This document shows positions 1 through 34,898 of a DNA stretch of 64,000 nucleotides, piece by piece (positions within the stretch are counted from its first letter, which is position 1; the number at the start of each line of letters is the position of its first letter). The position numbers and the translations under genes are program-made. The stretch comes from Squalus acanthias (lineage: Eukaryota). The DNA lies in assembly GCA_030390025.1 (NCBI GenBank), contig CM059432.1, forward strand, positions 97,714,001 through 97,778,000, written 5' to 3'. The notes beneath the pieces were generated by a model. It made no database searches, had not been told where the DNA came from, and was given only the letters and a program-made list of their open reading frames with translations.

Positions 1-1624
1 CGTGCTTGTATCCCAGACGATGCTGGTGCGAGGTTAGGCCTTCGTTGCCTAATACTATTGCTTGCTCTGGTCTCCGGCCAGCCTTTTAGCAATAAGCACC
101 TGTGAGTGGTTCGACCCACTCGCCCTTACGGTTCTAACACTGGACTTAGGTGCAGGAGCAGTAATGCAGAGAAAACTCAGATAGACCCGGTTGAATAGTA
201 CGAAATGGAAATCTTTATTGCATAGCGTCCAAAATCATGAAGTACATGTCATAGGCGCAAATTAACGAGAGTACAAGTATACATACATTCATAAAGCTTG
301 GTCTACGGTAATGAAGAACGCACGGCACATCGTAAAAAGGGGAACACATTATACTTTATCCTTAATAAAACCACCCTCCCTTATCAATACCTACACTACG
401 TCTAGATTTGTAGGATCGGGAAACATGCTCACCACTCGTGATACTTCGGAGAATTTTAAAGTGAGGCACTCGGCTCGTCTCGCTGCAGCGCCTGACTGTC
501 ACGTGTTTGGAGGGGTTCTGCACCCCACTTGTTTATCTTTGCTGCTGCGACAAGCAGGCCGGGCTCCCTGTTGTCATGAAGAACTCGACAGAACTCGGAC
601 ACGGTTCAAAGAAGAGCCTTCCTGTGCCCGACACCGGTTGTCGGTAGAATTCAATGAAGAGTCTTTCTTGTATTTTCGGGCGCGGTCGGGGTTTACTGAC
701 CGTGGCGGCACGTGGATTCTTCTTCTTTTCTTGTCATTTCATCTTGTCTTTTCGGGCCTTCGGGTCCAGACACCGTTTACCGACTCTCGGGATGGTGCAC
801 CCGGTCACTTGCCCTTGTCGAGGCGGCTCGTTCCGTTTGAGCTCCACCCAACATTCGAATAACCGTCCAGTGCGGCTAAAAGTCAAGAGTCAACAGAGTC
901 CAGCCCTAAGGAAGAGCTTCAGCAAGGGTTCGCCGAGAGATAAGAGAATAAGAGACGATTCGAGCGAATAAGCGTCGAAAATCAAGAGACCGATGGACAT
1001 TTGCTCACTATAGTTATAGTGCTGTGTTCCCTTATCTCCCGCTCAAATCTTAATGTTTGTCCTTTGTATAAAATTGGCGCTCAAAAACTCCCAGCATGGG
1101 GCGATTCTTTCCTTAACGGGTTTCGGTAGCACCTGAAACTGGCCAACTACCCGTTAATGTTTTCCCCATTGTTGACCCAGCCAGGATTGTATGAATCATC
1201 TCCCTGACTGGTTTTTGGTGGCCCCCGAATATTCGTTTAATCACCCGTCGATGTCTCTCTCATTGTAGAGCCGTGGGGGTATTTGTGTATTGATGTGTCT
1301 GGATGGGCCTTCGATTGCCCAGTACAATGGTCCTTACTTGTGCATGGAAAACGATTCCAGCACTTATATCTTTGCTATTGTTCCAAATGCAAACAGGTTG
1401 CATCCTGTCTTTATCAGTGTTTATCGAGTATGATAAATGTTTATTCGAACGCCATCTTGTCTGTCCACTGTATTTCTGGAAGCTTCTGCCACGATGCGCG
1501 GTGGCCATTTTTACAGGCTTCTGTGTCCTTTATAATCAGGACAGCATTTCGTTTAAATAAAACTGATCAAACGAATCTGCTTCTCTTAAGTTATTTCGAA
1601 TCGCGATAATTGCGAAACTCTACA
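1..1624 (-). repeat. 3' LTR (first ~16 bp lie outside the window)
   Basis: Colinear with 30112-31806; ends ...CTCTACA at 1624; minus-strand AATAAA at 214-219; abuts the PPT. Confidence 0.9.
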
Positions 1625-2015: not shown

Positions 2016-4367
2016 TTACACGGTACTTTCCTCGTTCACGTGCACGTAACGTTCTCTCCACTCCTCTGTGTTCTCCTGCTTTGTGAGGCGTTTGCCTCTT
2101 TTGCAGTGTACGACCAATAGGTACACTACAATCACTACTTGACACACTACCAAAATGTGGGAGGCTATCCTGATCCATGACGGAACTTCAATATTAGTGA
2201 ACAGATCCCACCACGGTGGGACTACTATGTCCAGTATCTCTGTCCCTATCTCTACAGTCTTTTGTTCTAGGGTGTAAAAATGTTTCTGTGATACCATGAC
2301 GGCTTTTAAAATCTTGGTGAGGTGTTCAGGGAGAGGGGGAATGATGTATCCGAAATGCGCGACGAATCGCTGCAAGTCTGTGAAATTCTCTTTTGCAGTG
2401 AGGTGAACAGTGGATGGTTCAGGAATCGGGACAATTCGCTGTTGTGCCACTTGAACTTCAGCCCTGGGTTTAAAACAGAAACTGCTGTCACTCACCGGAC
2501 ACCGGCTGTAGTGTCCATGCTGGTAGTGTTGCGCTGCAGTGGTAACGCAATACGTTCCACCCCCTATGTATGCCACCTGCGGAGGCACATGATCTTGTGT
2601 CATTGCTTCCATGGTGCAATTCATGGGCTTCGCGCCAGCCGTTCTGAACCCGCATTGTGGTGTTAAAAAGGCATTCAAGTGCTGGAGACACAGGATGATG
2701 TGTGCTCCCCGGCCACGACAACCCGAAAGGTCGGTACCTGTCATCGTTTGCTCCCAGCGGATAACGTAAGGTGGGACCACTGCGTAGCGAATGTGGGCTC
2801 CCCCCTGAATGACACCAATGTTCTCCACCCGGTACACCGGGGTGGGCTTTGCCGTGTCGCCCAACACCAGCATTCGTAGTACTATACCCATGATAGTGTG
2901 ATTTGACTGTCCGCAGTCCACTGGGACTGGGTATGCCTCTGAGGCTAGCCTGAGCTGGCACGGGCTTAATGCGTTCTGAAAAGGGTGGAGCGCCTGCAGG
3001 TGTTTGTTACTTATCCAGGACGGGACCAAACCTTGTTTTAAATCCTCCAAATTACTGCGGCCCTCGCCCAGTAACCACGCCCCGTATAGTACGCACACCT
3101 CGTTCTGCGCAGCTTGCTCGGATGCATTTCGATCTTCCCTGATCAGGGCATTTACCATTCTCGCATGCTTCTCCAGCTCTGCTATAATCTCTTTTAAGTG
3201 TAGTGTCATGGCCTGGTCCTCGTGTAACTCAGACCCTACTGCCTTGTTTTCACTTGTGAGGATGCTTTTTAACTGTGTTTTTAAACCGTTGATCTGGGTC
3301 TGCAGCTCCACATTGTCTAGAGCGTTGACCACAGATGTTCCCGTATTAAAAGCAGTGAACACATCGTTCACAACACCCCTTCTTTGTCTCCCCACCTGAC
3401 CCAAAACTTCGTGTGGTGTGGTGTATAAGCTTGTTTTGTCAATCTCTGCAAAATCAAACTCATAAAATTGCCTGAACATGTTTGTTAACAGGACCTGGTA
3501 CAATTGTTCCGTTTCTTTGGTACACCACTCTGGTAAATGCACCTCGGTGAGATTTAGAATCACCGAGGTCACCGCGTAATGTACCCCCTGATACAGTATC
3601 TGATCTGTTGGCACCAGTACCAGACCATTCCCGGGCCCCTTAGTGGTTTTAGGGCACCCTTCCTCCTGAGCCAAAGCCACCGGAATCATGGGCGGAGACT
3701 TGCGTGGGCGCGTGATGAGTTCAGTGGCGTTTACCGGGATCGGGGAGAATGGAGCTCCGCACCCCTTTGTGCTGACATCCCACCTCATCCCTTTCCCGTT
3801 GTCCTGCCACTGGTGTACGAAAAATAAGGATATACCCTTGGGGCAAACGTACTTCGATCCCCACATACAAACATATATTCCCTCATCCAGTTCCCACCAT
3901 TTGTCCCAACAGACTTTCAATTGTCTGTTAGTCCCCGTAATTGTCCGATGGGTATTGTTACCCAATCGCTCCCACTCGACCGAGGAATTTCTCATAGTCT
4001 TGCTTACCTTCCGTAGCCACCACCATCGGCTCAATGGGACCTTCCCATTGCATGTCAAACAAATCCTTTTGCCGACGGTGACGCTGATTCTGGGTGCAAT
4101 GATCCTCACTCTGGGGCACAGTAAAAAAGTCTCTTTGTAGGCAAATCCGGATGCGCTAGAGTATTCCGTCGAATTCGTTCCCAGCCATCCCGGCCACCTT
4201 CCCTTGTGGAAATAAGTGGCGGTTTCCTCAGCCTTTCGCTCCCTGGTCCCATCCGTCGTGATGGGGCCCGTGTCCCTGGAGCAACCGAACACAACGACAT
4301 CCTTGGTGAGGCCCCGATAGGCCAATCCATATCCGATCGTTGCGAGCACTATCAGAATCCTTTCCAT
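2016..4367 (-). CDS. env: Intact envelope / class I fusion glycoprotein, 783 aa, with N-terminal Ig-like domain
   Basis: Signal peptide; N-glycosylation sequons; furin site RQRR (aa 327-330); fusion peptide and heptad repeat; Cys-rich ectodomain; TM ~733-755; basic stop-transfer KRGKR; position upstream of PPT/LTR. Confidence 0.9.
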   Translation of the reverse strand: MERILIVLATIGYGLAYRGLTKDVVVFGCSRDTGPITTDGTRERKAEETATYFHKGRWPGWLGTNSTEYSSASGFAYKETFLLCPRVRIIAPRISVTVGKRICLTCNGKVPLSRWWWLRKVSKTMRNSSVEWERLGNNTHRTITGTNRQLKVCWDKWWELDEGIYVCMWGSKYVCPKGISLFFVHQWQDNGKGMRWDVSTKGCGAPFSPIPVNATELITRPRKSPPMIPVALAQEEGCPKTTKGPGNGLVLVPTDQILYQGVHYAVTSVILNLTEVHLPEWCTKETEQLYQVLLTNMFRQFYEFDFAEIDKTSLYTTPHEVLGQVGRQRRGVVNDVFTAFNTGTSVVNALDNVELQTQINGLKTQLKSILTSENKAVGSELHEDQAMTLHLKEIIAELEKHARMVNALIREDRNASEQAAQNEVCVLYGAWLLGEGRSNLEDLKQGLVPSWISNKHLQALHPFQNALSPCQLRLASEAYPVPVDCGQSNHTIMGIVLRMLVLGDTAKPTPVYRVENIGVIQGGAHIRYAVVPPYVIRWEQTMTGTDLSGCRGRGAHIILCLQHLNAFLTPQCGFRTAGAKPMNCTMEAMTQDHVPPQVAYIGGGTYCVTTAAQHYQHGHYSRCPVSDSSFCFKPRAEVQVAQQRIVPIPEPSTVHLTAKENFTDLQRFVAHFGYIIPPLPEHLTKILKAVMVSQKHFYTLEQKTVEIGTEILDIVVPPWWDLFTNIEVPSWIRIASHILVVCQVVIVVYLLVVHCKRGKRLTKQENTEEWRERYVHVNEESTV

Positions 4368-4379
4368 CTTTCCTGGTTC

Positions 4380-4400
4380 CTGTGATCAGATAAAATGATG
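4380..4400 (-). promoter_or_regulatory. Putative env splice acceptor
   Basis: Minus strand CATTTTATCTGATCACAG|G, with 12 nt between the acceptor and the env ATG. Confidence 0.6.
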
Positions 4401-4637
4401 TAGCCAGCCTCCCAAGAGTCTCTGACTTTTGTGAAGGGTGAGCGGGTCCCTTGACCTCGTCTCACGTAAAAAGACATGTACGCTGGATAGACTTTAACTA
4501 TTCCTATTTCTAACTCCCATCATTTTACCATTTACTTTTAAAATTAACCTACAATCTTACCAAACTAGAAAAAACTATAAACTTAAACTTAACCTAAACT
4601 TAACTGTACAGTGCCGCCCGTTCCCAGGGCGGCCTAG

Positions 4638-5453
4638 CTAAATTCTGCGAAGGCTGCCGCGAGCTTTTCCCAGTGGTGGGGGGGCACTGACCCCTTCCTT
4701 TGATCTGCCGCAGCCTGTCGCCGCTGCGCTGGGACTGGGATCTCCCTGGGCTACCTTGACCTTGAACTTACGCCTGGGGGTGCACGGGGGATTTGGCCAC
4801 GACTTCCTGGGCTGGGGTGTCTGACTTGACCTACGGAGGGCTACTTTGGGCAAGATTTCCAGGGCCGACGGACCAGGAACCAAGGCTTCCACCGTCACGG
4901 CCTGTGGTCCCACCACAGCCGCTGGCTCCGTCTCCCCTGGCTCCGCCCCCCTGAAATCGGGATTTGCAGTTTCTGGCTCCACCCTACTTAGCCCAGTATG
5001 TGGACTTCCACTCGCAATCCCTACCTCCCCTATGGGCAAGACTTCCAGGGCCGACGGACCGGGTACCGAGACTTCCACCGTCACGGCCTGTGGTCCCACC
5101 ACAGCCGCTGGCTCCGTCTCCTCTAGCTCCGTCCCCCTGGGCTCGGGATCTGCAGTTTCCGATTCCACCCTGTGTGGAACTCCACTCGGAGTCCCTATCT
5201 CCCCTAAGCTTGAGTCGAGGGCGAAACCTTCGTCCTCCGACCCCAGCACCTCTCCGACCGGGTCACTACCTTGATCGAGCTCCTCGAGCTCTTCCTCATC
5301 TGAATCCCAACACCAAGAAAAGATCCTACACTTTTCTAGAATGTCCTCTCCCGTCAAGCAGGCTGCTTTACCGGTCTGTGTGCCCTGCAGTTCTACCCGG
5401 GGCTGAGAGTCCCCACTCGCAGGTCTGGCCCCTCCCCTAAGACAGGCCACCAC
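4638..5453 (-). CDS. Acidic/Pro-rich ORF of unknown function with a 62-aa internal duplication; no ATG start
   Basis: 271 codons from a GTG, frame open ~48 codons further upstream; 186-bp direct repeat (4846 vs 5032). Confidence 0.4.
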   Translation of the reverse strand: MVACLRGGARPASGDSQPRVELQGTQTGKAACLTGEDILEKCRIFSWCWDSDEEELEELDQGSDPVGEVLGSEDEGFALDSSLGEIGTPSGVPHRVESETADPEPRGTELEETEPAAVVGPQAVTVEVSVPGPSALEVLPIGEVGIASGSPHTGLSRVEPETANPDFRGAEPGETEPAAVVGPQAVTVEALVPGPSALEILPKVALRRSSQTPQPRKSWPNPPCTPRRKFKVKVAQGDPSPSAAATGCGRSKEGVSAPPPLGKARGSLRRI

Positions 5454-5520
5454 CCCTGCTTGTGCATTCTGTGTGATCTCGCGGAGAAATGCGTCAGCGC
5501 TACGCGGAGCGGCCCAGGCA

Positions 5521-5624
5521 TTTCCGGACTCGTGTTTCTGATGTTCGAAGTCCGGAAACGCCCGAGCCCAGGTTGCGATATTTCCGGACTTCGGACATCA
5601 GAAACACGTTCCGAAGTCCGGAAA
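5521..5624. repeat. Pair of self-complementary hairpins that are inverted copies of each other
   Basis: TTTCCGGACT...AGTCCGGAAA at 5521-5558 and 5581-5624; the second is a near reverse complement of the first. Confidence 0.85.
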
Positions 5625-5684: not shown

Positions 5685-6220
5685 ATTTGCTTTTCTAATT
5701 GCTTGCTGTACCTGCATGTTAACTTTCAGTGATTCGTGCGAAAGGACACCCAGGTCCCTCTGAACACCAACATTTCCTAATCTCTCACCATTTAAAAAAT
5801 ACTCTGCTTTTCTATTTTTCCTACCAAAGTGGTTAACTTCACATTTCTCCACATTATATTCCATTTGCCATGTTCTTGCCCATTCACTTAGCTTGTCTAT
5901 ATCCCCTTGAAGCCTCTTTGCATTCTCCTCACAACTTACATTCCCACCCAGCTTTGTATCAGCAAACTTGGATGTATTACATTTGGTCCCCTCATCCAAA
6001 TCATTGATATAGATTGTGAATAGCTGAGGCCCAAGCACTGATCCTTGCGGTATCCCACTAGTTACTGCCTGCGAACCCGAAAATGACCCGTTTATTCCTA
6101 CTCTCTGTTTTCTGTCCATTAACCAATCCTCAATCCATGATAATATATTACCCCAATCCCATGAGCCCTAATATTGTTTAATAATCTCTTGTGTGGCACC
6201 TTATCGAATGCCTTCTGAAA
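5685..6220 (-). mobile_element. CR1 LINE RT fragment
   Basis: GIPQGSVLGPQLFTIYINDL, KFAD(D)TKLG. Confidence 0.9.
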
Positions 6221-6616
6221 ATAATAGTAATGTGTCGCAGACAACTTTCCCCTGAGATCTACTTCTTTCTCAAATGTGTCTCCAGATAGTCTTCCTCTTT
6301 ATAATGTTCAATATCATGCATTAGACAACAACTATAATTGCATGACTATTACGGTAATGAGATGCTGTCTGTCAAGAATTGCCTTTTTTTCTTTGTCAGG
6401 TATTGCTTTTGTTATCATTGCTTGAAAGCTCTTGTTGTTCTGCTGTTGCTGGACAACTTGAATTAGATGGCAATAACATTATATTTACAGTTCACAAGCA
6501 CTGCAATCATTTTGGATGACAGACTTTGAAAGAGGCTGTTTTTGTAGCACTTTGTGATGTGCTTCCTGTGTGACTGTCAATTTATAAACGACTTTAGCAT
6601 CTGCTGCAAATAAATT

Positions 6617-16713: not shown

Positions 16714-19494
16714 CATAAAAACATAAGAAATAGGAGCAGGAGTAGGCCATTCGGCCCTTCAAGCCTGCTCCGCCATTCAATGAGATCATGGCTGATCTTC
16801 TGCCTCAACTCCATTCACCGGCCCTATCGCCATATCCCTTGATGCCCTTACTAGTCAGAAATCTATCGACTTCTGTTTTGAATATACCCAATGACTGAGC
16901 CTCCACAGCCCTCTGGGGTAGAGAATTCTAAAGATTCACCACCCTCTGTGTGAAGAAATTTCTTCTCATCTCAGTCCTGAATGGACTACCCTTTTTTCCT
17001 GAGGCTGTGGCCCCTGGTTCTAGACTCCCCAGCCAAGGGAAACATTCTCCCAGCATCCACCCTATCAAGCCCTGTAATAATTTTGTATGCTTCAATGAGA
17101 TCCCCTCTCATTCTTCTGAATTCAAGAGAATACAGGCCTAGTTTACTCAATCTCTTCTCATACGACAGTCCCGCCATCCCAGGAATCAATCTTGTGAACC
17201 TTCGTTGCACTCCTTCTATGGCAGGTATATCCTTCCTTAGGTAAGGAGACCAAAATTGTACACAGTACTTCAGGTGTGGTCTCACCAAGGCCCTATATAA
17301 TTGGAGTAAGACTTCTTTACTCCTGTACTCAAATCCTCTTGTAATGAAGGCCAGCATACCATTTGCCTTCCTAATGGCTTGCTGCACCTGCACATTCACT
17401 TTCAGTGATTCGTGTACAAGGACACCCAGGTCCCTTTGAGCATCTGCATTCCCCAATCTTTCACCATTTAGGAAATAATTTGCCTTTCTGTTTTTTCTAC
17501 CAAAGTGGATAACTTCACATTTATCCACATTATATTCCATCTGCCATGTTCTCGCCTGAGCCTGTCGAGATCCTCCTGAAGCCTCTTCACAACTGACAAT
17601 GCCACCTAGTTTTGTATCATCAGCAAATTTGGAAATGTTACATTTAGTCCCCTCATCTAAATCATTGATATAGATTGTGAATAGCTGGGGCCCAAGCACC
17701 GATCCTTGTGGTACCCCACTAGTCACGCCTGCCATCCTGAAAAAGGCCCGTTTATCAATATTCTTTGTTTTCTGTCTGTTAACCAATTCTCAATCCATGC
17801 TAGTATATTACCCCCAATTCCATATGCCCTAATTTTGTTCACCAACCTCTTGTGTGGGACCTTATCGAAGGCCTTCTGAAAATCCAAATACACCACATCT
17901 ACCGGTTCCCCTTTGTCTACTCCACTAGTTACATCCTCAAAGAACTCCAATAGGTTTGTCAAACAGGATTTCCCTTTCATAAATCCATGTTGACTCTGCC
18001 CAATCTTACTATTAGTTTCTAAGTGCCCAGTTATTGCATCCTTTATAATAGATTCCAGCATTTTCCCAACTACTGATGTGAGGCTAACAGGTCTGAAGTT
18101 CCCCGTTTTCTCTCTCCCTCCTTTTTAAATAGCAGGGTTACATTTGCTATCCTCCAATCTGCAGGAACCATTCCAGAATCTATAGAATTTTGGAAGATGA
18201 CAACCAATGCGTCCACTATCCCAATGGCCACCTCTTTCAAAACCCTAGGATGTAGGTCATCCGGTCCTTGGGATTTATTGACTTTTAGTCCCATTAATTT
18301 TGCTAGTACTGTTTTTTTACGAATAATAATTTCTTTAAGTTCCTCATTCTCGCCACACCCTTGGTTTTCTTGTGTTTCTGGGAGGTTTTTTGTGTCTTCC
18401 TCCGTGAAGACAGAAACAAAGTATTTATTTAATTTCTCGGCCATTTCCTCATTCCCCAGTATAAATTCTCCCGTCTCTGACTGTAAAGGACCTATATTTA
18501 CCTTCACCAGTCTTTTCCTTTTCACATACCTATAGAAGCTTTTACAATCCTTTTTTATATTTTTTGCTAGTTTGTGCTCATATTCCATTTTCCCTTTCTT
18601 TATCAATTTCTTGGTCCCCCTTTGCTGATTTCTAAAATGATCCCAATCCTCAGGCTTACCGCTTTTTCTGGCAACTTTATAAGCTTCCTCCTTTGACTTA
18701 ATACTCGCTTTAATTTCTTTTGTTCGCCATGGTTGGATCACTTTTCCTTTTGGGTTTTTATGCCCTAGAGGAATATATGTTTTTTGCAAATTATGCATTA
18801 TTTCCTTGAATGTTAGCCATTGTATGTCCACCTTCATACCTTTTAGTGTAGTCTCCCAATCTACCATGGCCAACTTGTCCCTCATACCCTTGTAGTTTCC
18901 TCTGTTTAGATTGAAGACCTTAGTTTCAGATTGGACTACATCACTCTCAAACTTAATATAAAATTCAATCATATTATGGTCACTTGTCCCTAAAGGCCCC
19001 TTTACCACAAGATTATTGATTAACCCTTTCTCATTACACAGTACCAGATCCAGAATAGCCTGTTCCCTGGTTGGTTCCTCCACATACTGATCCAGGAAAC
19101 CATCTTGCATGCATTCCAAGAATTCGTCCTCCACACCATTAATGGTAATTTGATTTTCCCAGTCAATATGTAGATTAAAGTTCTGCATGATTACCGTATT
19201 TCCCTTGTTACATGCACTTCTAATCTCTTGATTGATACTGTGCCCTACATTACCACTACTGTTTGGTGGCCTATACACAACTCCCACCAATGTTTTCCGC
19301 CCTTTGCTGTTTCTTAGCTCCACCCAAACTGATTCCAGTTCTACATCACGATCTGTCAAGCCAAGATCTACCAAGGCCAACTTGTCCCTCATAGCCTTGT
19401 AGTTTCCTCTGTTTAGATTGAAGACCTTAATTTCAGATTGGACTACATCACTCTCAAACTTAATGTAAAATTTAATCATATTATGGTCACTTGT
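16714..19494 (-). mobile_element. CR1 LINE ORF2 (APE endonuclease + RT), frameshifted
   Basis: VYRPPN, SDHN, QHGF..KSCLTNLLEFF, FADDTKL; CTTATGTT-type 3' tail. Confidence 0.95.
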
Positions 19495-27620: not shown

Positions 27621-28815
27621 CAGTACTTTAACAGTTTCCAGTTTCCTGGCCCTAACCGTCTCCTTTTCATCATGGACATCCATAGAAACATAGAAGATAG
27701 GAGCATGAGTAGGCCATTCGGCCTCTCGAGCCTGCTCCAACATTCAATGTGATCATGGCTGATCATCCAAATTCAGTACCCTGTCCCTGCTTTCTCCCCA
27801 TATCCCTTGATCCCCTTAGCATTAAGAAATATATCTAACTCCTTCTTGAATATATTTAATGAATTGGACTCAACTGTCTTCTGTGGTAGAGAATTCCACA
27901 GGTTCACCACTCTCTGGGTGAAGAAATTCCTCCTCATCTCTGTCCTAAATGGATTACCCCTTATCCTTAGACTGTGACACCTGGTTCTGGGCTCCCCCAC
28001 CATCGGGAACATCCTTCCTGCATCTAGTCTGTCTAGCCCTGTTAGAATTTTATAAGTTTCAATGAGATCCCCTCTCATTCTTCTAAACTCTAGCGAATAC
28101 AAGCCCAATCGACCCAATCTCTCTTCATACATCATTCCTGCCATCCCAGGTATCAGTCTGGTGAATCTTCGCTGCACTCTCTCCATGGCAAGAACATCCT
28201 TCCTCAGATAAGGTGACCAAAACTGCACACAATACTCAAGGTGTGGTCTCACCAAGGCCCTGTACAACTGCAGCAAGACATCCTTGCTCCTGTACTCAAA
28301 TCCGCTCGCTACGAAGGCCAACATACCATTTGCCTTCTGAACCACCTGCTGCACCTGCATGCTTACCTTCAGCGACTGGTGCACAAGGACACCCAGGTCT
28401 CGTTGCACTTCCCCTTTTCCCAATCTATTGCCCTGCAGATAATAATCTGCCTTCCTGTTTTTGCCACCAAAGTGGATAACCTCGCATTTATCCACATTAT
28501 ACTGCATCTGCCATGCATCTGCCCAATCACCCAAATCATACTGGAGCTTCTCTGCATCATCCTCACAGCACACACGCCCACGCAGCTTTGTGTCGTCTGC
28601 AAACTTGGAGATATTACATCTAGTTCCCTCGTCTAGATCATTAATATATATTGTGAATAACTGGGGTCCTAGCACCGATCCCTGCGGTACCCCACTAGTC
28701 ACTGCCTGCCACTCGGAAAAAGACCCGTTTATTCCAACTCTTTGCTTCCTGTTTGCCAACCAGTTTTCTATCCAGGACAGTACCTTACCCCCAATCCCTT
28801 GTGCTTTAACTTTGC
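27621..28815 (-). mobile_element. 5'-truncated CR1 LINE
   Basis: RT C-terminal half and tail; closely related to 32411-34898. Confidence 0.95.
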
Positions 28816-30111
28816 CATGTGGGGACTCCAGGACACCTCCCATGTCCTCTACAACCACATGTGCAGGAAGTGTCGTCAGCTGGAGGAGCTCAAGTTCCGT
28901 TTTTTGAGCTTGAGCAGCAGCTGGCGTCACTGCGGTGCATCCGTGAGGCTGAGAGCTTCGTGGATAGCACGTTTCAGGAGGTGGTCACCCCGCAGATAAA
29001 GAGTGTACAGGCAGAAAGGGAATGGGTGACCGCCAGACAGAAGAGGAGGACCAGGCAGGAAGTGCAGAAGTTCCCTGAGTGCATCTCGCACTCCAACCAG
29101 TATTCAATTCTGAGTACTGGTGAGGGCGATGGTTCCTCTGGGGAGTATAGCCAGAGCCAAGTCTGCGGCACCACGGGTAGAAGAGTGGGAAAGCAAGAAA
29201 GCAATAGTGGTATGGGATTCGATAGTTAGGGGAGCAGACAGGCGTTTCTGTGGCCGTAGACGTGATTCCAGGATGGTATGTTGCCTCCCTGGTGCCACTG
29301 TCAAAGATGTCACTGAGCGGCTGCAGAACATTCTGAGGCAGGAGGGTGAACAGCCATAGGTCGTGGTCCATATCGGTACCAACGACATAGGTAGAAAGAG
29401 GGATGAGGTCCTGCAGGCAGATTTCAGGGAGCTAGGAAAGAGATTAAAAGCAGGACCTCAAAGGTAGTAATCTCTGGATTACTCCCGGTGCCACGCTCTA
29501 GTGAGTATAGAAATAGGAGGATAGCGTAGATCAATACGTGGCTGCAGAGATGGTGCAGGAGGGAGGGCTTTTGATTCCTGGGACATTGGGACCAGTTCTG
29601 GGGGAGGTGGGACCTGCACAGGCTGGACGGGTTGCACCTCAACAGGGCCGGAACCAATATCCTCGCGGGGAGATTTGCTAGTGCTGTTGCGGAGGGTTAA
29701 ACTAAGTTGGCAGGGGGATGGGCACCAGGATGTAACATTAGAAAGGGGAAATAAAGTGCTCAAAGGATTGGGAGATGCAGAGAGCACTAAAGTAAGAAAT
29801 AGTAAGGTATTAGGAGGTGTCAAACTAAGAGAGAATACAGGATGGTCTAAGATGGGTTTATAGTGTATGTATGTGAACGCATGAAGCATAGTAAACAAGG
29901 TAAGTGAGCTGCAGGCACAAATAGCCACATGGGAATATGATGTTGTGGCAATACCTGAGACCTGGCTCAAAAAAAGGCAGGATTGGGTATTAAATATTCC
30001 TGGTTATAAAGTGTTCAGGAAAGATAGGGAAGGAAAGATAGGATTGGCAGTATTAGTCAAGGAGAATGTTACAGTGCTGGAGAGGGAGGATGTCCTGGAG
30101 GGGTCAAGGAC

Positions 30112-31806
30112 TGTAAGGGGTGCCGGCGTGCTTGTATCACAGACGGTGCTGGTGCGAGGTTAGGCCTTCGTTGCCTAATACTATTGCTTGCTCTGGTCTC
30201 CGGCCAGCCTTGTTGCAATAAGCACCTGTGAGTGGTTCGACCCACTCGCCCTTACGGTTCTAACACTGGACTTAGGTGCGAGAGCAGTAATGCAGAGAAA
30301 AACTCAAATAGACCCGGTTGAATAGTACGAAATGGAAATCTTTATTGCATAGCGTCCAAAATCATGAAGTACATGTCATAGGCACAAATTAACGAGAGTA
30401 CAAGTATACATACATTCATAAATCTTGGTCTATGGTAATGAAGAACGCACGGCACATCGTAAAAAGGGGAACACATTATACTTTATCCTTAATAAAACCA
30501 CCCTCCCCTATCAATACCTACACTACATCTAGATTTGTAGGATCGGGAAACATGCTCACCACTCGTGATACTTCGGAGAATTTCAAAGTGAGGCACTCGG
30601 CTCGTTTCGCTGCAGCGCCTGACTGTCACGTGTTTGGAGGGGTCTCTGTACCCCACTTGTTTATCTTCGCTGCTGCGGCAAGCAGGCTGGGCTCCCTGTT
30701 GTCATGAAGAACTCGACAGCACTCGGGCCCGGCTGTAGAACTCAAAGAAAAGTCTTCCTGTACCGACACCAGTTGTCGGTAGAATTCAAAGAAGAGTCTT
30801 TGACCGGTTCGTGCAATAACCTGTAGAGTTCAAGAAGTGGGTCTTATATTTTCAGGCGCGGTCGGGGTTTACTGGCACGTGGATTCTTCTTCTTTTCTTG
30901 TCATTTCGTCTTGTCTTGTTGGGCCTTCGGGTCCAGACACCATTTACCGACTCTCGGGATGGTGCACCCGGTCACTTGCCTTCGTCGAGGCGGCTCGTTC
31001 CGATTGAGCTCCACCCAACATTCGAATAACCGTCCAGTGCGGCTAAAGTCCAGAGTCAACAGAGTCCAGAGAAAACACAGAAGCCTGCTCGTCCAGCAGA
31101 GCGATACCCGAGGATCAGAATAGGAGAATAAGAGTTCAGCCCGAGTCAAGAGTCAGCAGAGATAAGAGAGCGATGGACATTTGTTCACTATAGTTATAGT
31201 GCTGTGTTCCCTTATCTCCCGCCCAAATCTTAATGTTTGTCCTTTGTGAAATATTGGCGCTCAAAACTGCCAGCATGGGGCGATTCTTGTCTTTAACGGG
31301 TTTCGGTAGCACCTGAAACTGGCCAACTACCCGTTAATGTTTTCCCCATTGTTGAACCGGCTAGGAGCCTCCCTGGCTGGGTTTTGGGGGCCCCCGAATA
31401 CTTGTTTAATCACCCGAGAATGGCTCTCTCATTGTAGAGCCGTGGGGGTATTTGTGTATAGATGTGTCTGGATGGGCCTTCGATTGCCCAGTACAATGGT
31501 CCTTACTTGTGCATGGAAAACAATTCCAGCACTCATATCTTTTGCTATTGTCACAAATGCAAACAGGTTGCATCCTGTCTTTATCAGTGCTTATCGAGTA
31601 TGATCCCGTCTTATATTGAAATATTTATTCGAACGCCATCTTGTCTGCCCACTGTAATTCTGGAAGCTTCTGCCACGATGCGCGGTGGCCATTTTACAGG
31701 CTTCTGTGCCCTTTATAATCATGACAGCATTTTGTTTAAATAAACTGATCAAACGAATCTGCTTCTCTCTCATTATTTTGAATCGCGATAATTGCGAAAC
31801 TTTACA
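30112..31806 (-). mobile_element. Solo LTR of the env-bearing family (1695 bp)
   Basis: TGTAA...TTACA termini; flanked by GAC/GAC; contiguous CR1 coding sequence on both sides. Confidence 0.92.
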
Positions 31807-32410
31807 GACAGAATCTATATGGCTAGAGTTAAGAAACAATGGAGGTGCCATTACACTACGAGGTGTATTCTTTTGACCACCAAATAGTGGGAAAGCTATG
31901 GAGGAGCAAGTTTGCAGAGAAATTACAGAGAGGTGCGAGAACTATAGAGTAGTAATAATGGGGGACTTCAAATATCCTAATGTAGACAGGGATCGTAATA
32001 GTGTCAATAGCAGAGAAGGTGAATAATTTCTGAAGTGTTTCAGTAGAACTTTCTTGATCAGTATGTTACCAGCCCGACGAGGGAGGAGGCATTGCTGGAT
32101 CTGGTTCGGGGAATGAGGTAGGTCAAGTGGAGCAAGTGTCAGTATTTTGGAAACAGTGATCATAGTACCATAAGGTTTAGATTAGTTATGAAAAAGGACA
32201 GGGAGCAATCTAGAGTAAAAATGCTTAACTGGGGGAAGGCCAATTTCAGTGGGATGAAAACGGATCTGGCCCGGATAAACTGGAATCAAAGATTGGTAGG
32301 CAAAACTGTAATGGAACAATGGGCTGCCTTTAAAGAGGAAATAGTTCAGGTACAGTTGAGGTACATTCCCACTCGGGGGAAAGGCAGGGCAACTAAAGTC
32401 AGGGCTCCTG

Positions 32411-34898
32411 GGTTATCATGGGTGACTTTAATCTACATATAGATTGGACTAACCAAATTAGTAACAATACTATGGAGGGGGAATTCCTGGAGTGTATACG
32501 GGATGGTTTCCTGGACCAATATGTCGAGGAACCAACTAGAGATCAGGCCATCTTAGACTGGGTAATATGTAATGAGAAAGGAATAATTAGCAATCTTGTT
32601 GTGCGAGGCCCCTTGGGCCGGAGCGATCATAATATGATAGAATTCTTCATTAAGATGTAGAGTGAAGTATTTGACTCAGAGACTAGGGTCCTGAATTTAA
32701 ATAAAGAAAAGTACGATGGTATGAGGCGCGAATTGGGTAGGATTGATTGGGGAATGTTACTCAAAGGGTTGAAAGTGGATAGGCAATGGCAAACATTTAA
32801 AGATCGCATGGATGAACTACAGAATTTGTTCATCCCTGTTTGGCATAAAAATAAAACAAAAAAGGTGAATATACCGTGGCTAACAAGGGAAATTAGGGAT
32901 AGCATAAGATCCAAGGAGAGCACATATAAATTGGCCAGAAAAAGCAGCAAACCTGAGGATTGGGAGCAGTTTAGGATTCAGCAAAGGAGGACAAAGGCAT
33001 TAATTAAGAGGGGGAAAATAGAATATGAGAGTAAGCTTTCAGGGAACATAAAAACTGACTGTAAAAGCTTCTATAGATATGTGAAGAGAAAAAGATTAGT
33101 GAAGTCAAGCATAGGTCCCTTGCAGTCAGAATCAGGGGAATTTATAATGGGGAACAAAAAAATGGCAGACCAATTAAATACATATTTTGGTTCTGTCTTC
33201 ACAAAGGAGGACACAAATAACCTCCCAGAGATGTCGGGGAACATAGGGTCTAATGAGAGAGAGGAACTGAAAGAAATCAGTATTTGTAGGGAAATGGTGT
33301 TAGGGAAATTGACGGGATTGAAGGCTGATAAATCCCCAGAGCCTGATAATCTACATCCTAGGGTACTTAAGGAAGTAGCCCTAGAAATAGTAGATGCATT
33401 ACTGGTCATCTTCCAAAATTCTATAGACTCTGGAACAGTTCCCATGGATTGGAGGGTAGCTAATGTTACCCCACTATTCAAAAAAGGTGGTAGAGAGAAA
33501 ATGGGGAATTATGGACCGGTAAGCCTGACATCGGTAGTGGGGAAAATGCTAGAATCCATTATAAAAGATGTAATAGCAGAGCACTTGGAAAACAGTGACA
33601 GGATCGGTCAAAGTCAACATGGATTTACAAAAGGTAAATCGTGCTTGACTAATCTACTGGAATTTTTTGAGGATGTAACTGGTAAAATAGATAAGGGAGA
33701 ACCAGTGGATGTGGTGTATTTGGACTTTCAGAAGGCTTTCGATAAGGTCCTGCATAACAGATTAGTGTGTAAAGTTAAGGCACATGGGATTTGGGGCAGG
33801 GTACTGACTTGGATAGAGAACTGGTTGGCAGACAGGAAGCAAAGAGTTGGAATAAACGGGTCTTTTTCCGAGTGGCAGGCAGTGACTAGTGGGGTACTGC
33901 AGGGATCGGTCCTAGGACCCCAGCTAATGATCTAGACGAGGGAACTAGATGTAATGTCTCCAAGTTTGCAGACGACACAAAACTGGGTGGGCATGTGTGC
34001 TGTGAGGAGGATGCCGAGAAACTCCAGTATGATATGGATAAGTTGGGTGATTGGGCAGATGCATGGCAAATGCAGTACAATGTGGATAAATGCGAGGTTA
34101 TGCACTTTGGTGGCAAAAACAGGAAGGCAGATTATTATCTGAAAGGCAATAGATTGGGAGAAGGGGAATTGCAATGAGACCTGGGTGTCCTTGTGCACCA
34201 GTCGCTGAAGGTGAGCATGCAGGTGCAGCAGGCGGTTCAGAAGGCAAATGGTATGTTGGCCTTCGTAGCGAGAGAGTTCGAGTACAGGAACAAGGATGTC
34301 TTGCTGCAGTTGTACAGAGCCTTGGTGAGACCACATCTTGAGTATTGTGTGCAGTTTTGGTCACCTTATCTGAGGAAGGATGTTCTTGCCATGGAGGGAG
34401 TGCAGCGAAGATTCACCAGACTGATACCTGGGATGGCAGGAATGACGTATGAGGAGAGATTGGGTCGATTGGGCTTATACTCGCTGCAGTTTAGAAGAAT
34501 GAGAGGGGATCTCATTGAAACTTATAAAATTCTAACAGGACTAGACAGACTAGATGCAGGAAGGATGTTCCCGATGGCCGGGGAGTCCAGAACCAGGGGT
34601 CACAGTCTAAGGATAAGGGGTAAGCCATTTAGGACAGAGATGAGGAGGAATTTCTTCACCCAAAGAGTGGTGAACCTGTGGAATTCTCTACCACAGAAGG
34701 CAGTTGAGGCCAACTCATTAAATATATTCAAGAAGGAGTTAGATATATTTCTTAAGGCTAAAGAGATCAAGGGTTATGGGGAGAAGGCAGGGACAGGGTA
34801 CTGAATTTGGATGATCAGCCATGATCTCATTGAATGGCGGAGCAGGCTCGAGAGGCCGAATGGCCTACTCCTGCTCCTATCTTCTATGATTCTATGAT
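32411..34898 (+). mobile_element. CR1 nested within CR1
   Basis: MGDFN...RT motifs; TTCTATGA tail. Confidence 0.93.

Follow-up and report, generated by a model that had tools for sequence, protein, structure and literature searches.

Background

Receptor-binding domains (RBDs) with an immunoglobulin (Ig) fold are known from retroviral envelope glycoproteins of the gamma type, for which the capture of a host SIRP IgV domain and the swapping of RBDs have been described (Hotzel, bioRxiv 10.1101/2024.03.17.585361, main text as accessible). Fusion proteins of the F type either depend on a separate attachment protein, as in paramyxoviruses, or carry a built-in module, as in foamy virus Env and coronavirus spike, and the gain of such modules has mostly been argued from structure. 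According to the accessible part of a study of foamy virus Env, the F scaffold accepts binding modules in two places, at the N-terminus (coronavirus spike) or between subunits (foamy Env) (Fernandez et al., PMC11468914).

Here, we describe an endogenous retroviral Env in a 64,000-nucleotide stretch of the Squalus acanthias genome (the window), in which residues 84-186 are, with fair probability, a strongly diverged V-type domain of the Ig superfamily (IgSF) and act as attachment head for the F-type (class Ib) Env that a snakehead retrovirus (SnRV)-like element encodes. This Env resembles the SIRP-like IgV RBD of Env-Dbi and Env-Per and the IgV-like RBD-C of MLV/FeLV, as presented in the accessible text of the Hotzel preprint, in its predicted N-terminal V-type Ig domain, predicted extra disulfide, and RBD exchange. 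Those Envs, however, are gamma-type and their SIRP donor is clear by sequence, whereas here the core appears to be F-type and the donor is unrecognisable; none of the strings 'shark', 'loki', and 'paramyxo' appears in the accessible text of that preprint (10.1101/2024.03.17.585361). Foamy virus Env (PDB 8rm0/8rm1) similarly has an integral binding module on an F-like scaffold, but its RBD, as described in the accessible part of PMC11468914, is a 330-aa novel fold located before the furin site, while the module described here is N-terminal, in the position of the coronavirus spike module. Paramyxovirus and pneumovirus F proteins have the same predicted core, lack an N-terminal head, and require a separate attachment protein. 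The contrast with paramyxovirus F that the initial annotation of this locus had drawn thus holds, though foamy Env and coronavirus spike are the nearer comparison (PMC11468914, accessible part). In the openly accessible literature, bioRxiv supplements aside, we found neither a report of an Ig head on a retroviral Env of the F type nor, in openly accessible journals, a description of an SnRV-clade Env as F-type. Ig RBDs on gamma-type Env and F-like loki and foamy Envs are already known.

Results and discussion

An intact env frame in a truncated provirus

The env open-reading frame (P0001) is intact, encodes 783 aa, and occupies window positions 2016-4367 on the minus strand, as do all features given below with window coordinates unless stated otherwise. 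It begins with a predicted signal peptide (aa 1-16, 4320..4367), evident as a hydrophobic N-terminus in the sequence, followed by an N-terminal arm (aa 17-83, 4119..4319) that carries sequon N65 and C29, the inferred partner of C203. The Ig-like domain (aa 84-186, 3810..4118) comes next and is joined by a linker (aa 187-237, 3657..3809), Pro-rich past C203, to the fusion core. Downstream of env, a polypurine tract (~1625-1637) precedes the 3′ LTR of ~1.64 kb (1..1624), whose far end lies ~16 nt before the window. Upstream of env, a remnant of the 3′ part of pol with a deletion junction (4368..5482) is all that is left of the provirus; the window copy has no RT, gag, or 5′ LTR.

A predicted V-type Ig-like domain ahead of the fusion core

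The initial annotation had noted canonical Ig signatures within window 3816-4115, corresponding to aa 85-184 of env, and all of these were located as claimed: SVTVGKRICLTC runs from aa 95 through C106, W117 follows, DEGIYVC occupies 161-167, and an additional pair is formed by C103 and C153. Its account of the extra cysteines was right for C103/C153 and incomplete otherwise, as the C84/C175 and C29/C203 pairs, which are likewise conserved, had been missed; eight cysteines lie ahead of the fusion core (C103/C106/C153/C167 plus C29, C84, C175, and C203). The 61 aa from C106 to C167 fall within the 55-75 aa of IgSF V/I-set domains, and the B-strand Cys, the C-strand Trp, and the F-strand D/E-x-G-x-Y-x-C are kept in 58-60 of 60 loci. 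Shuffling the ORF 20,000 times produced the pattern C-x(9-16)-W-x(35-60)-[DE]xGxYxC, which was composed after viewing the sequence, in 15 cases. An extra cross-strand C103-C153 bond is plausible from Ig topology because the two residues would lie on the neighbouring strands B and E. Inspection of the sequence also revealed sequons N127 and N137 inside the domain, eight Trp in the module, and a basic composition (18 K+R vs 6 D+E).

Profile searches gave matches of varying strength. Pfam Ig_3 matched env below threshold (15.5 bits vs a curated cut-off of 30; E 0.025) and matched 17 of 18 aligned rows (best E 2.1e-4), so that an Ig HMM match, whose absence was to count against the domain, was seen, while the curated cut-off was reached by no Ig HMM score. 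A profile built from 14 rows of this head family only (family A) aligned with the IgV domain of CRTAM over positions 8-99 of 103 (E 0.03), the B, C, E, and F strand motifs being in register; among its nine PDB matches to E 10, four were Ig, with non-Ig matches interspersed at E 0.08-2. When this profile was widened by seven rows of head families B-D, 60 of the 60 listed PDB matches were Ig-superfamily or Ig-containing proteins, with JAM-A as the best (E 1.7e-5). Profile A1 with long flanks produced no match in the PDB, and phmmer with the whole Env produced a single chance match there. With Atlas language-model features, the top matches of the head were Ig domains (0.88-0.90).

The structural check proposed along with the Ig claim gave a divided result. 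AlphaFold from the single sequence was uninformative (pLDDT 38), whereas a 21-row alignment yielded a beta-sandwich (pLDDT 61.7; core strands 70-80), although this alignment took in seven rows of families B-D, whose homology to the family-A head is insignificant (hhalign ~1%). Foldseek matched the model to antibody V-like chains with a probability of ~1.0 and a best E of 3.7e-3, no match being obtained at E<=0.001. The best VIA match was TREM-1 (Z 7.0, which is within the range of common arrangements; rmsd 2.7; 89 aligned), followed by TREM2, NKp44, catshark CD8a, and pIgR, all tied at 9-18% identity, and a BFVD search of the model matched viral Ig-like proteins.

Every score being sub-threshold, the model confidence being moderate, and non-Ig matches being interspersed in the family-A search are what would be expected if a beta-rich viral domain merely imitated Ig motifs and the assignment to Ig arose by chance or as an alignment artefact. 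Against this, sequence, language-model, and structure searches agree on Ig, the CRTAM alignment is full-length with its strand motifs in register, and the motif is rare in shuffled sequence, and we regard a mimic as quite improbable. Since the four tests (Atlas, Pfam rows, Foldseek/VIA, and the CRTAM profile) are concordant, though each is only weak to moderate and none passes a curated cut-off, an Ig fold of residues 84-186, V-type over other types, is considered very likely from their combination, in agreement with the initial reading.

A predicted F-type fusion core with one conserved furin site

Past aa 238, the protein continues with an F2-like segment (aa 238-330, 3378..3656) of 93 aa without an insert, which starts with a conserved C-P-x(3-8)-G-L and ends in RQRR (327-330, 3378..3389), with a predicted hydrophobic fusion peptide directly after. 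The F1/TM-like subunit (aa 331-758, 2094..3377) contains a heptad region, a Cys-rich domain, and a transmembrane helix at ~aa 728-758. This layout of signal peptide, furin site then fusion peptide, heptads, Cys-rich domain, and C-terminal transmembrane helix is that of class Ib (F-type) fusion proteins. A 40-row profile of the core found foamy virus Env first in the PDB (E 0.014), with the cysteines in register, and F0 at E 0.44, while Atlas features placed the core close to F0 (0.94; 209/256 features); Pfam Fusion_gly gave no match to env at E<=1. The core is thus predicted to be F-type (class Ib), nearest to foamy Env and F, and the earlier description of the fusion part as F-like is borne out.

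The linker contains RPRK at 220-223 (3699..3710), which had been put forward as a second basic cleavage site. RPRK is present, but it fits neither R-X-K/R-R nor R-X-X-R, its final residue being Lys, and it is not conserved: it occurs in 27 of 30 copies of its own subfamily and in 4 of 26 readable copies of other subfamilies, which mostly have YTRK or HTRK in its place, and in 0 of 4 skate and sawshark proteins, which have RPRI, RPRT, HIKK, and QVKK instead. RQRR, in contrast, is the only R-X-K/R-R or R-X-X-R site ahead of aa 735, and, among readable copies, R-x-R-R is found in 28 of 29 from the own subfamily and in 15 of 19 from the others. RPRK was rejected as a furin site on grounds of consensus and conservation, and a conserved second furin cut comparable to RSV p27 or the foamy leader is not supported, though the dibasic RK may be cut by another protease. 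Furin cleavage would be expected at RQRR330, with the Ig head staying on the F2-like surface subunit via the Pro-rich linker, and all eight cysteines of the head module would pair within the module.

Conservation of the Ig-like domain

The Ig region matches at least 150 places in the same genome at 93-100% identity (5,564 candidates, of which 150 were scored). Conservation was followed in 60 loci, which represent three subfamilies and were chosen by their score to Ig-containing queries. In these, C84, C103, C106, W117, and C153 are present in 60/60, C167 in 58/60, and C175, C29, and C203 in 59/60. Between subfamilies, the Ig domain has a pN of 0.15-0.26 vs a pS of 0.64-0.90, with an omega of 0.11 for A2-A3, where it was measurable, indicating that the domain is under purifying selection in three subfamilies. 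The omega of 0.06 within subfamilies was set aside because the copies had been selected by Ig score. Between-subfamily identity is 57-75% for the Ig domain and 60-71% for the F2-like segment, with F1 a little above Ig, while the linker, at 44-53%, is the most variable part of the protein. The Ig domain therefore lacks the hypervariability of many receptor-binding domains. Outside S. acanthias, the family-A head also occurs in skate, sawshark, and whale shark proteins, so that the presence in related env copies anticipated by the initial annotation was found both within and beyond this genome.

An exchangeable N-terminal slot

Relatives of this Env were found in skate, sawshark, whale shark, bamboo shark, smoothhound, catshark, and a frog. 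All share the core, opening with C-P-x(3-8)-G-L, and they differ in what lies between it and the signal peptide. In two relatives (P0038 and P0047), the core directly follows the signal peptide, suggesting that it may function without a head. The three head families B, C, and D, found in the S. acanthias genome and other sharks, have a weak contactin-like Ig signal (E 1e-3), and in this group P0012 is named 'Ig-like domain-containing' in UniRef. The head of a frog relative (P0019) has weak antibody similarity, and P0035 and P0053 carry a Cys-less V/I-set head (Pfam E 1e-4 to 2e-3), located at residues 14-130 in P0035 and at ~1215-1320 in P0053, where it forms the end of a frog pol model. Cys-rich heads without an Ig signal are present in P0013/P0022 and at three S. 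acanthias loci (L093, L097, and L102), and other short heads at L100, L101, and L103.

Alignment of the heads with hhalign grouped only B, C, and D (93-96% probability); head A against B, C, D, E, or F gave 0.1-2%, insignificant next to controls of up to 1%, and heads A, B-D, E, and F showed no significant alignment with each other. Heads A and B do align in register over ~80 columns, and one old origin for the Ig heads A-D may underlie this. The cores nearest to family A bear non-Ig heads, and forcing the nine Ig-bearing cores together against the eight others costs 110.7 log units (p-AU 8e-45) in a quick, unrooted tree of 17 rows and 330 residues. Because the same core bears modules that cannot be aligned with each other, or none, and Ig-bearing cores do not form one clade, the Ig domain occupies an exchangeable slot that follows the signal peptide and precedes the fusion core. 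The core tree and head alignments leave two histories, repeated gain of Ig heads or repeated loss and replacement of an old one, and the N-terminus is an exchangeable module under both.

This arrangement also bears on the alternative that the Ig domain is not a binding head but an old viral domain with a structural task, stabilising the prefusion trimer as a cap or as a folding chaperone. Such a role would fit the strong purifying selection, the extra disulfides and eight Trp, and a donor search that found none, but it sits poorly with relatives that lack the Ig domain or have unrelated modules in its place, and with its being joined on by a Pro-rich linker more variable than the rest of the protein. 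We therefore consider a structural cap unlikely.

Two of the alternative heads deserve separate mention. The frog-type Cys-less heads of P0035 and P0053 outscore the shark head on Pfam Ig models and are the best candidate for donor tracing. A phmmer search with P0035 found no match in the PDB. In the sister env family of the same genome (L093:757-1500, L097:2635-3414, L102:2632-3411), the head is Cys-rich, spans ~200 aa, and lacks a convincing match in Pfam.

Proposed origin and role of the Ig head

As an attachment head, the Ig domain would bind a cell-surface receptor or glycan and so do the job of the separate H/HN/G protein that accompanies paramyxovirus F. Receptor binding is inferred, and the modular slot favours it. 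Heads would be gained, swapped, and lost through recombination at the linker, and some would have been taken long ago from host Ig-superfamily genes. The initial annotation had proposed a captured host IgSF domain; capture is plausible and, in the long run, a host origin of the Ig head appears likely, but the donor gene was not among the database matches, since no host protein occurred among the 47 matches (10 checked by name) or among four others. The sequence of the head has diverged too far for a donor family to be assigned.

Large DNA viruses use captured Ig proteins as immune modulators or decoys, and the Ig domain could in principle act likewise, either displayed on virus particles and infected cells, where it would engage receptors of the inhibitory or nectin/CD300 type, or shed after cleavage, with attachment left to the core. 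The best matches are immune receptors (TREM-1/2, NKp44, CD300a, CRTAM, and CD8a), the BFVD matches include viral Ig-like proteins, the even number of cysteines in the module makes a tether to the core unneeded, and most shark copies have the dibasic RK. However, the matches are tied at 11-17% identity and reflect the common V fold, shedding would lack a conserved furin site (skate relatives have RPRI or RPRT), and the slot is also filled by non-Ig heads, for which a shared attachment role fits better. A decoy is accordingly judged improbable, and attachment remains the preferred reading; if it is correct, the receptor could be sought with a 100-residue domain.

An apparently SnRV-like retroviral element

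Five copies chosen for an intact env and taken with their flanks have the structure LTR-gag-pol-env-LTR. Their pol encodes protease, RT, a tether RNase H, RNase H, and integrase, and gag has a zinc knuckle (zf-CCHC match, E 0.0026). Foamy Gag is not known to have a zinc knuckle and foamy Env has an RBD insert that is missing from the F2-like part here, which indicates that the element is not a foamy virus. The best PDB matches of pol were MLV/XMRV (239 bits), foamy virus (217), and Ty3 (193), its nearest database relatives were elements of frog, Xenopus, and coelacanth at 37-43%, and no relative was found in the viral contigs scanned with pol. In a quick 56-row RT tree, built without named reference sequences, the element fell on the retrovirus side, outside a 17-row gamma/epsilon-like group.

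The primer sites of two copies (L032 and L035) are complementary to the 3′ end of host tRNA-Arg(TCG) genes, and the SnRV primer site is tRNA-Arg. By eye, the RT agrees with the row for snakehead retrovirus in a published alignment (PMC7947760, accessible part) in WPVxKPDxSWRxTxDYR, LDISNGFWSI, LPQGFHxSPxIFHQ, and QYVDD, whereas the two lokiretrovirus rows have PFGY-NSP and IYVDD where the S. acanthias element has LPQGFH and QYVDD. Lokiretroviruses share with the element the order LTR-gag-pol-env, a dual RNase H, and an F-like Env with signal peptide, RxKR-type site, fusion peptide, coiled coil, and transmembrane helix; no Ig domain was reported for them ('immunoglobulin' occurs 0 times in the accessible text and supplement), and they were detected in 0 of 3 Orectolobiformes genomes screened (Wang and Han, PMC7947760). 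The lokiretrovirus label, which the dual RNase H and F-like Env would fit, was dropped because the RT motifs differ by eye. The element thus looks SnRV-like by its RT motifs as judged by eye, a label that does not rest on a tree with named references. SnRV-like elements have been described in elephant shark (PMC4422223) and other vertebrates (PMC12193657, PMC4977317), with the clade extending over fish, amphibians, reptiles, and birds (PMC12193657), according to the accessible parts of these papers.

The sequence comparisons suggest that the little-studied Env of the SnRV clade is F-type, not gamma-type. It is conceivable, if somewhat doubtful at present, that, besides loki and foamy viruses, SnRV-clade retroviruses in sharks and amphibians form a second retroviral lineage with an F-type fusogen. 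This fusogen would have become a one-piece entry machine whose plug-in N-terminal slot took up host IgSF domains (at least 3-4 Ig heads unrelated to each other), as well as other modules, repeatedly and independently for receptor binding. If true, the slot would be a living record of how spike-like proteins acquire binding domains. Gain and exchange of modules could be traced here because one family has the core with an Ig head, a non-Ig head, or no head, together with many intact young copies.

Genomic copies and neighbouring repeats

Many copies in the genome carry an open env frame of 789 aa. The LTR pairs of the five flanked copies are 98-99.7% identical, indicating that the insertions are young, and RT is absent in three of the five. 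The window copy matches the junction of the pol-deleted copy L038 to position 5482, its 5′ part being lost. A nearly identical gag-to-pol deletion is present in L038 (4728-7658) and L040 (5122-7836), with L036 and L037 cited alongside, and window 4368-5482 matches this junction; because L038, L040, and the window copy share it, a subfamily that lost pol and kept env has spread. Seven sequencing runs guessed to be RNA contain 17-24% of the words, and four give short contigs across the stretch, evidence neither for nor against expression.

In one copy, gag and pol are in frame with TGA-CTAG between them (L032:3421-3427); TGA-CTAG is a known stop-readthrough context, and gamma- and epsilonretroviruses use TAG. 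The tRNA-Arg end has 422 exact matches in the genome, and tandem arrays with a period of ~1,623 nt that contain tRNA-Arg(TCG) and tRNA-Ser(GCT) genes are located at G000:C26:38.99-42.2 Mb (L088-L090). Within the window, an imperfect direct repeat of ~180 nt (82%) at 4844-5206 lies in the long post-integrase tail and is seen in other copies too, and a solo LTR of the same family at 30111-31807 is ~88% identical to the 3′ LTR at 1-1624. At the point where the provirus breaks off, a short inverted-repeat element (5521-5624) and a LINE RT fragment (5685-6222) are found, and further LINE RT/endonuclease ORFs occur at 16986-19479, 27773-28843, and 32721-33935.
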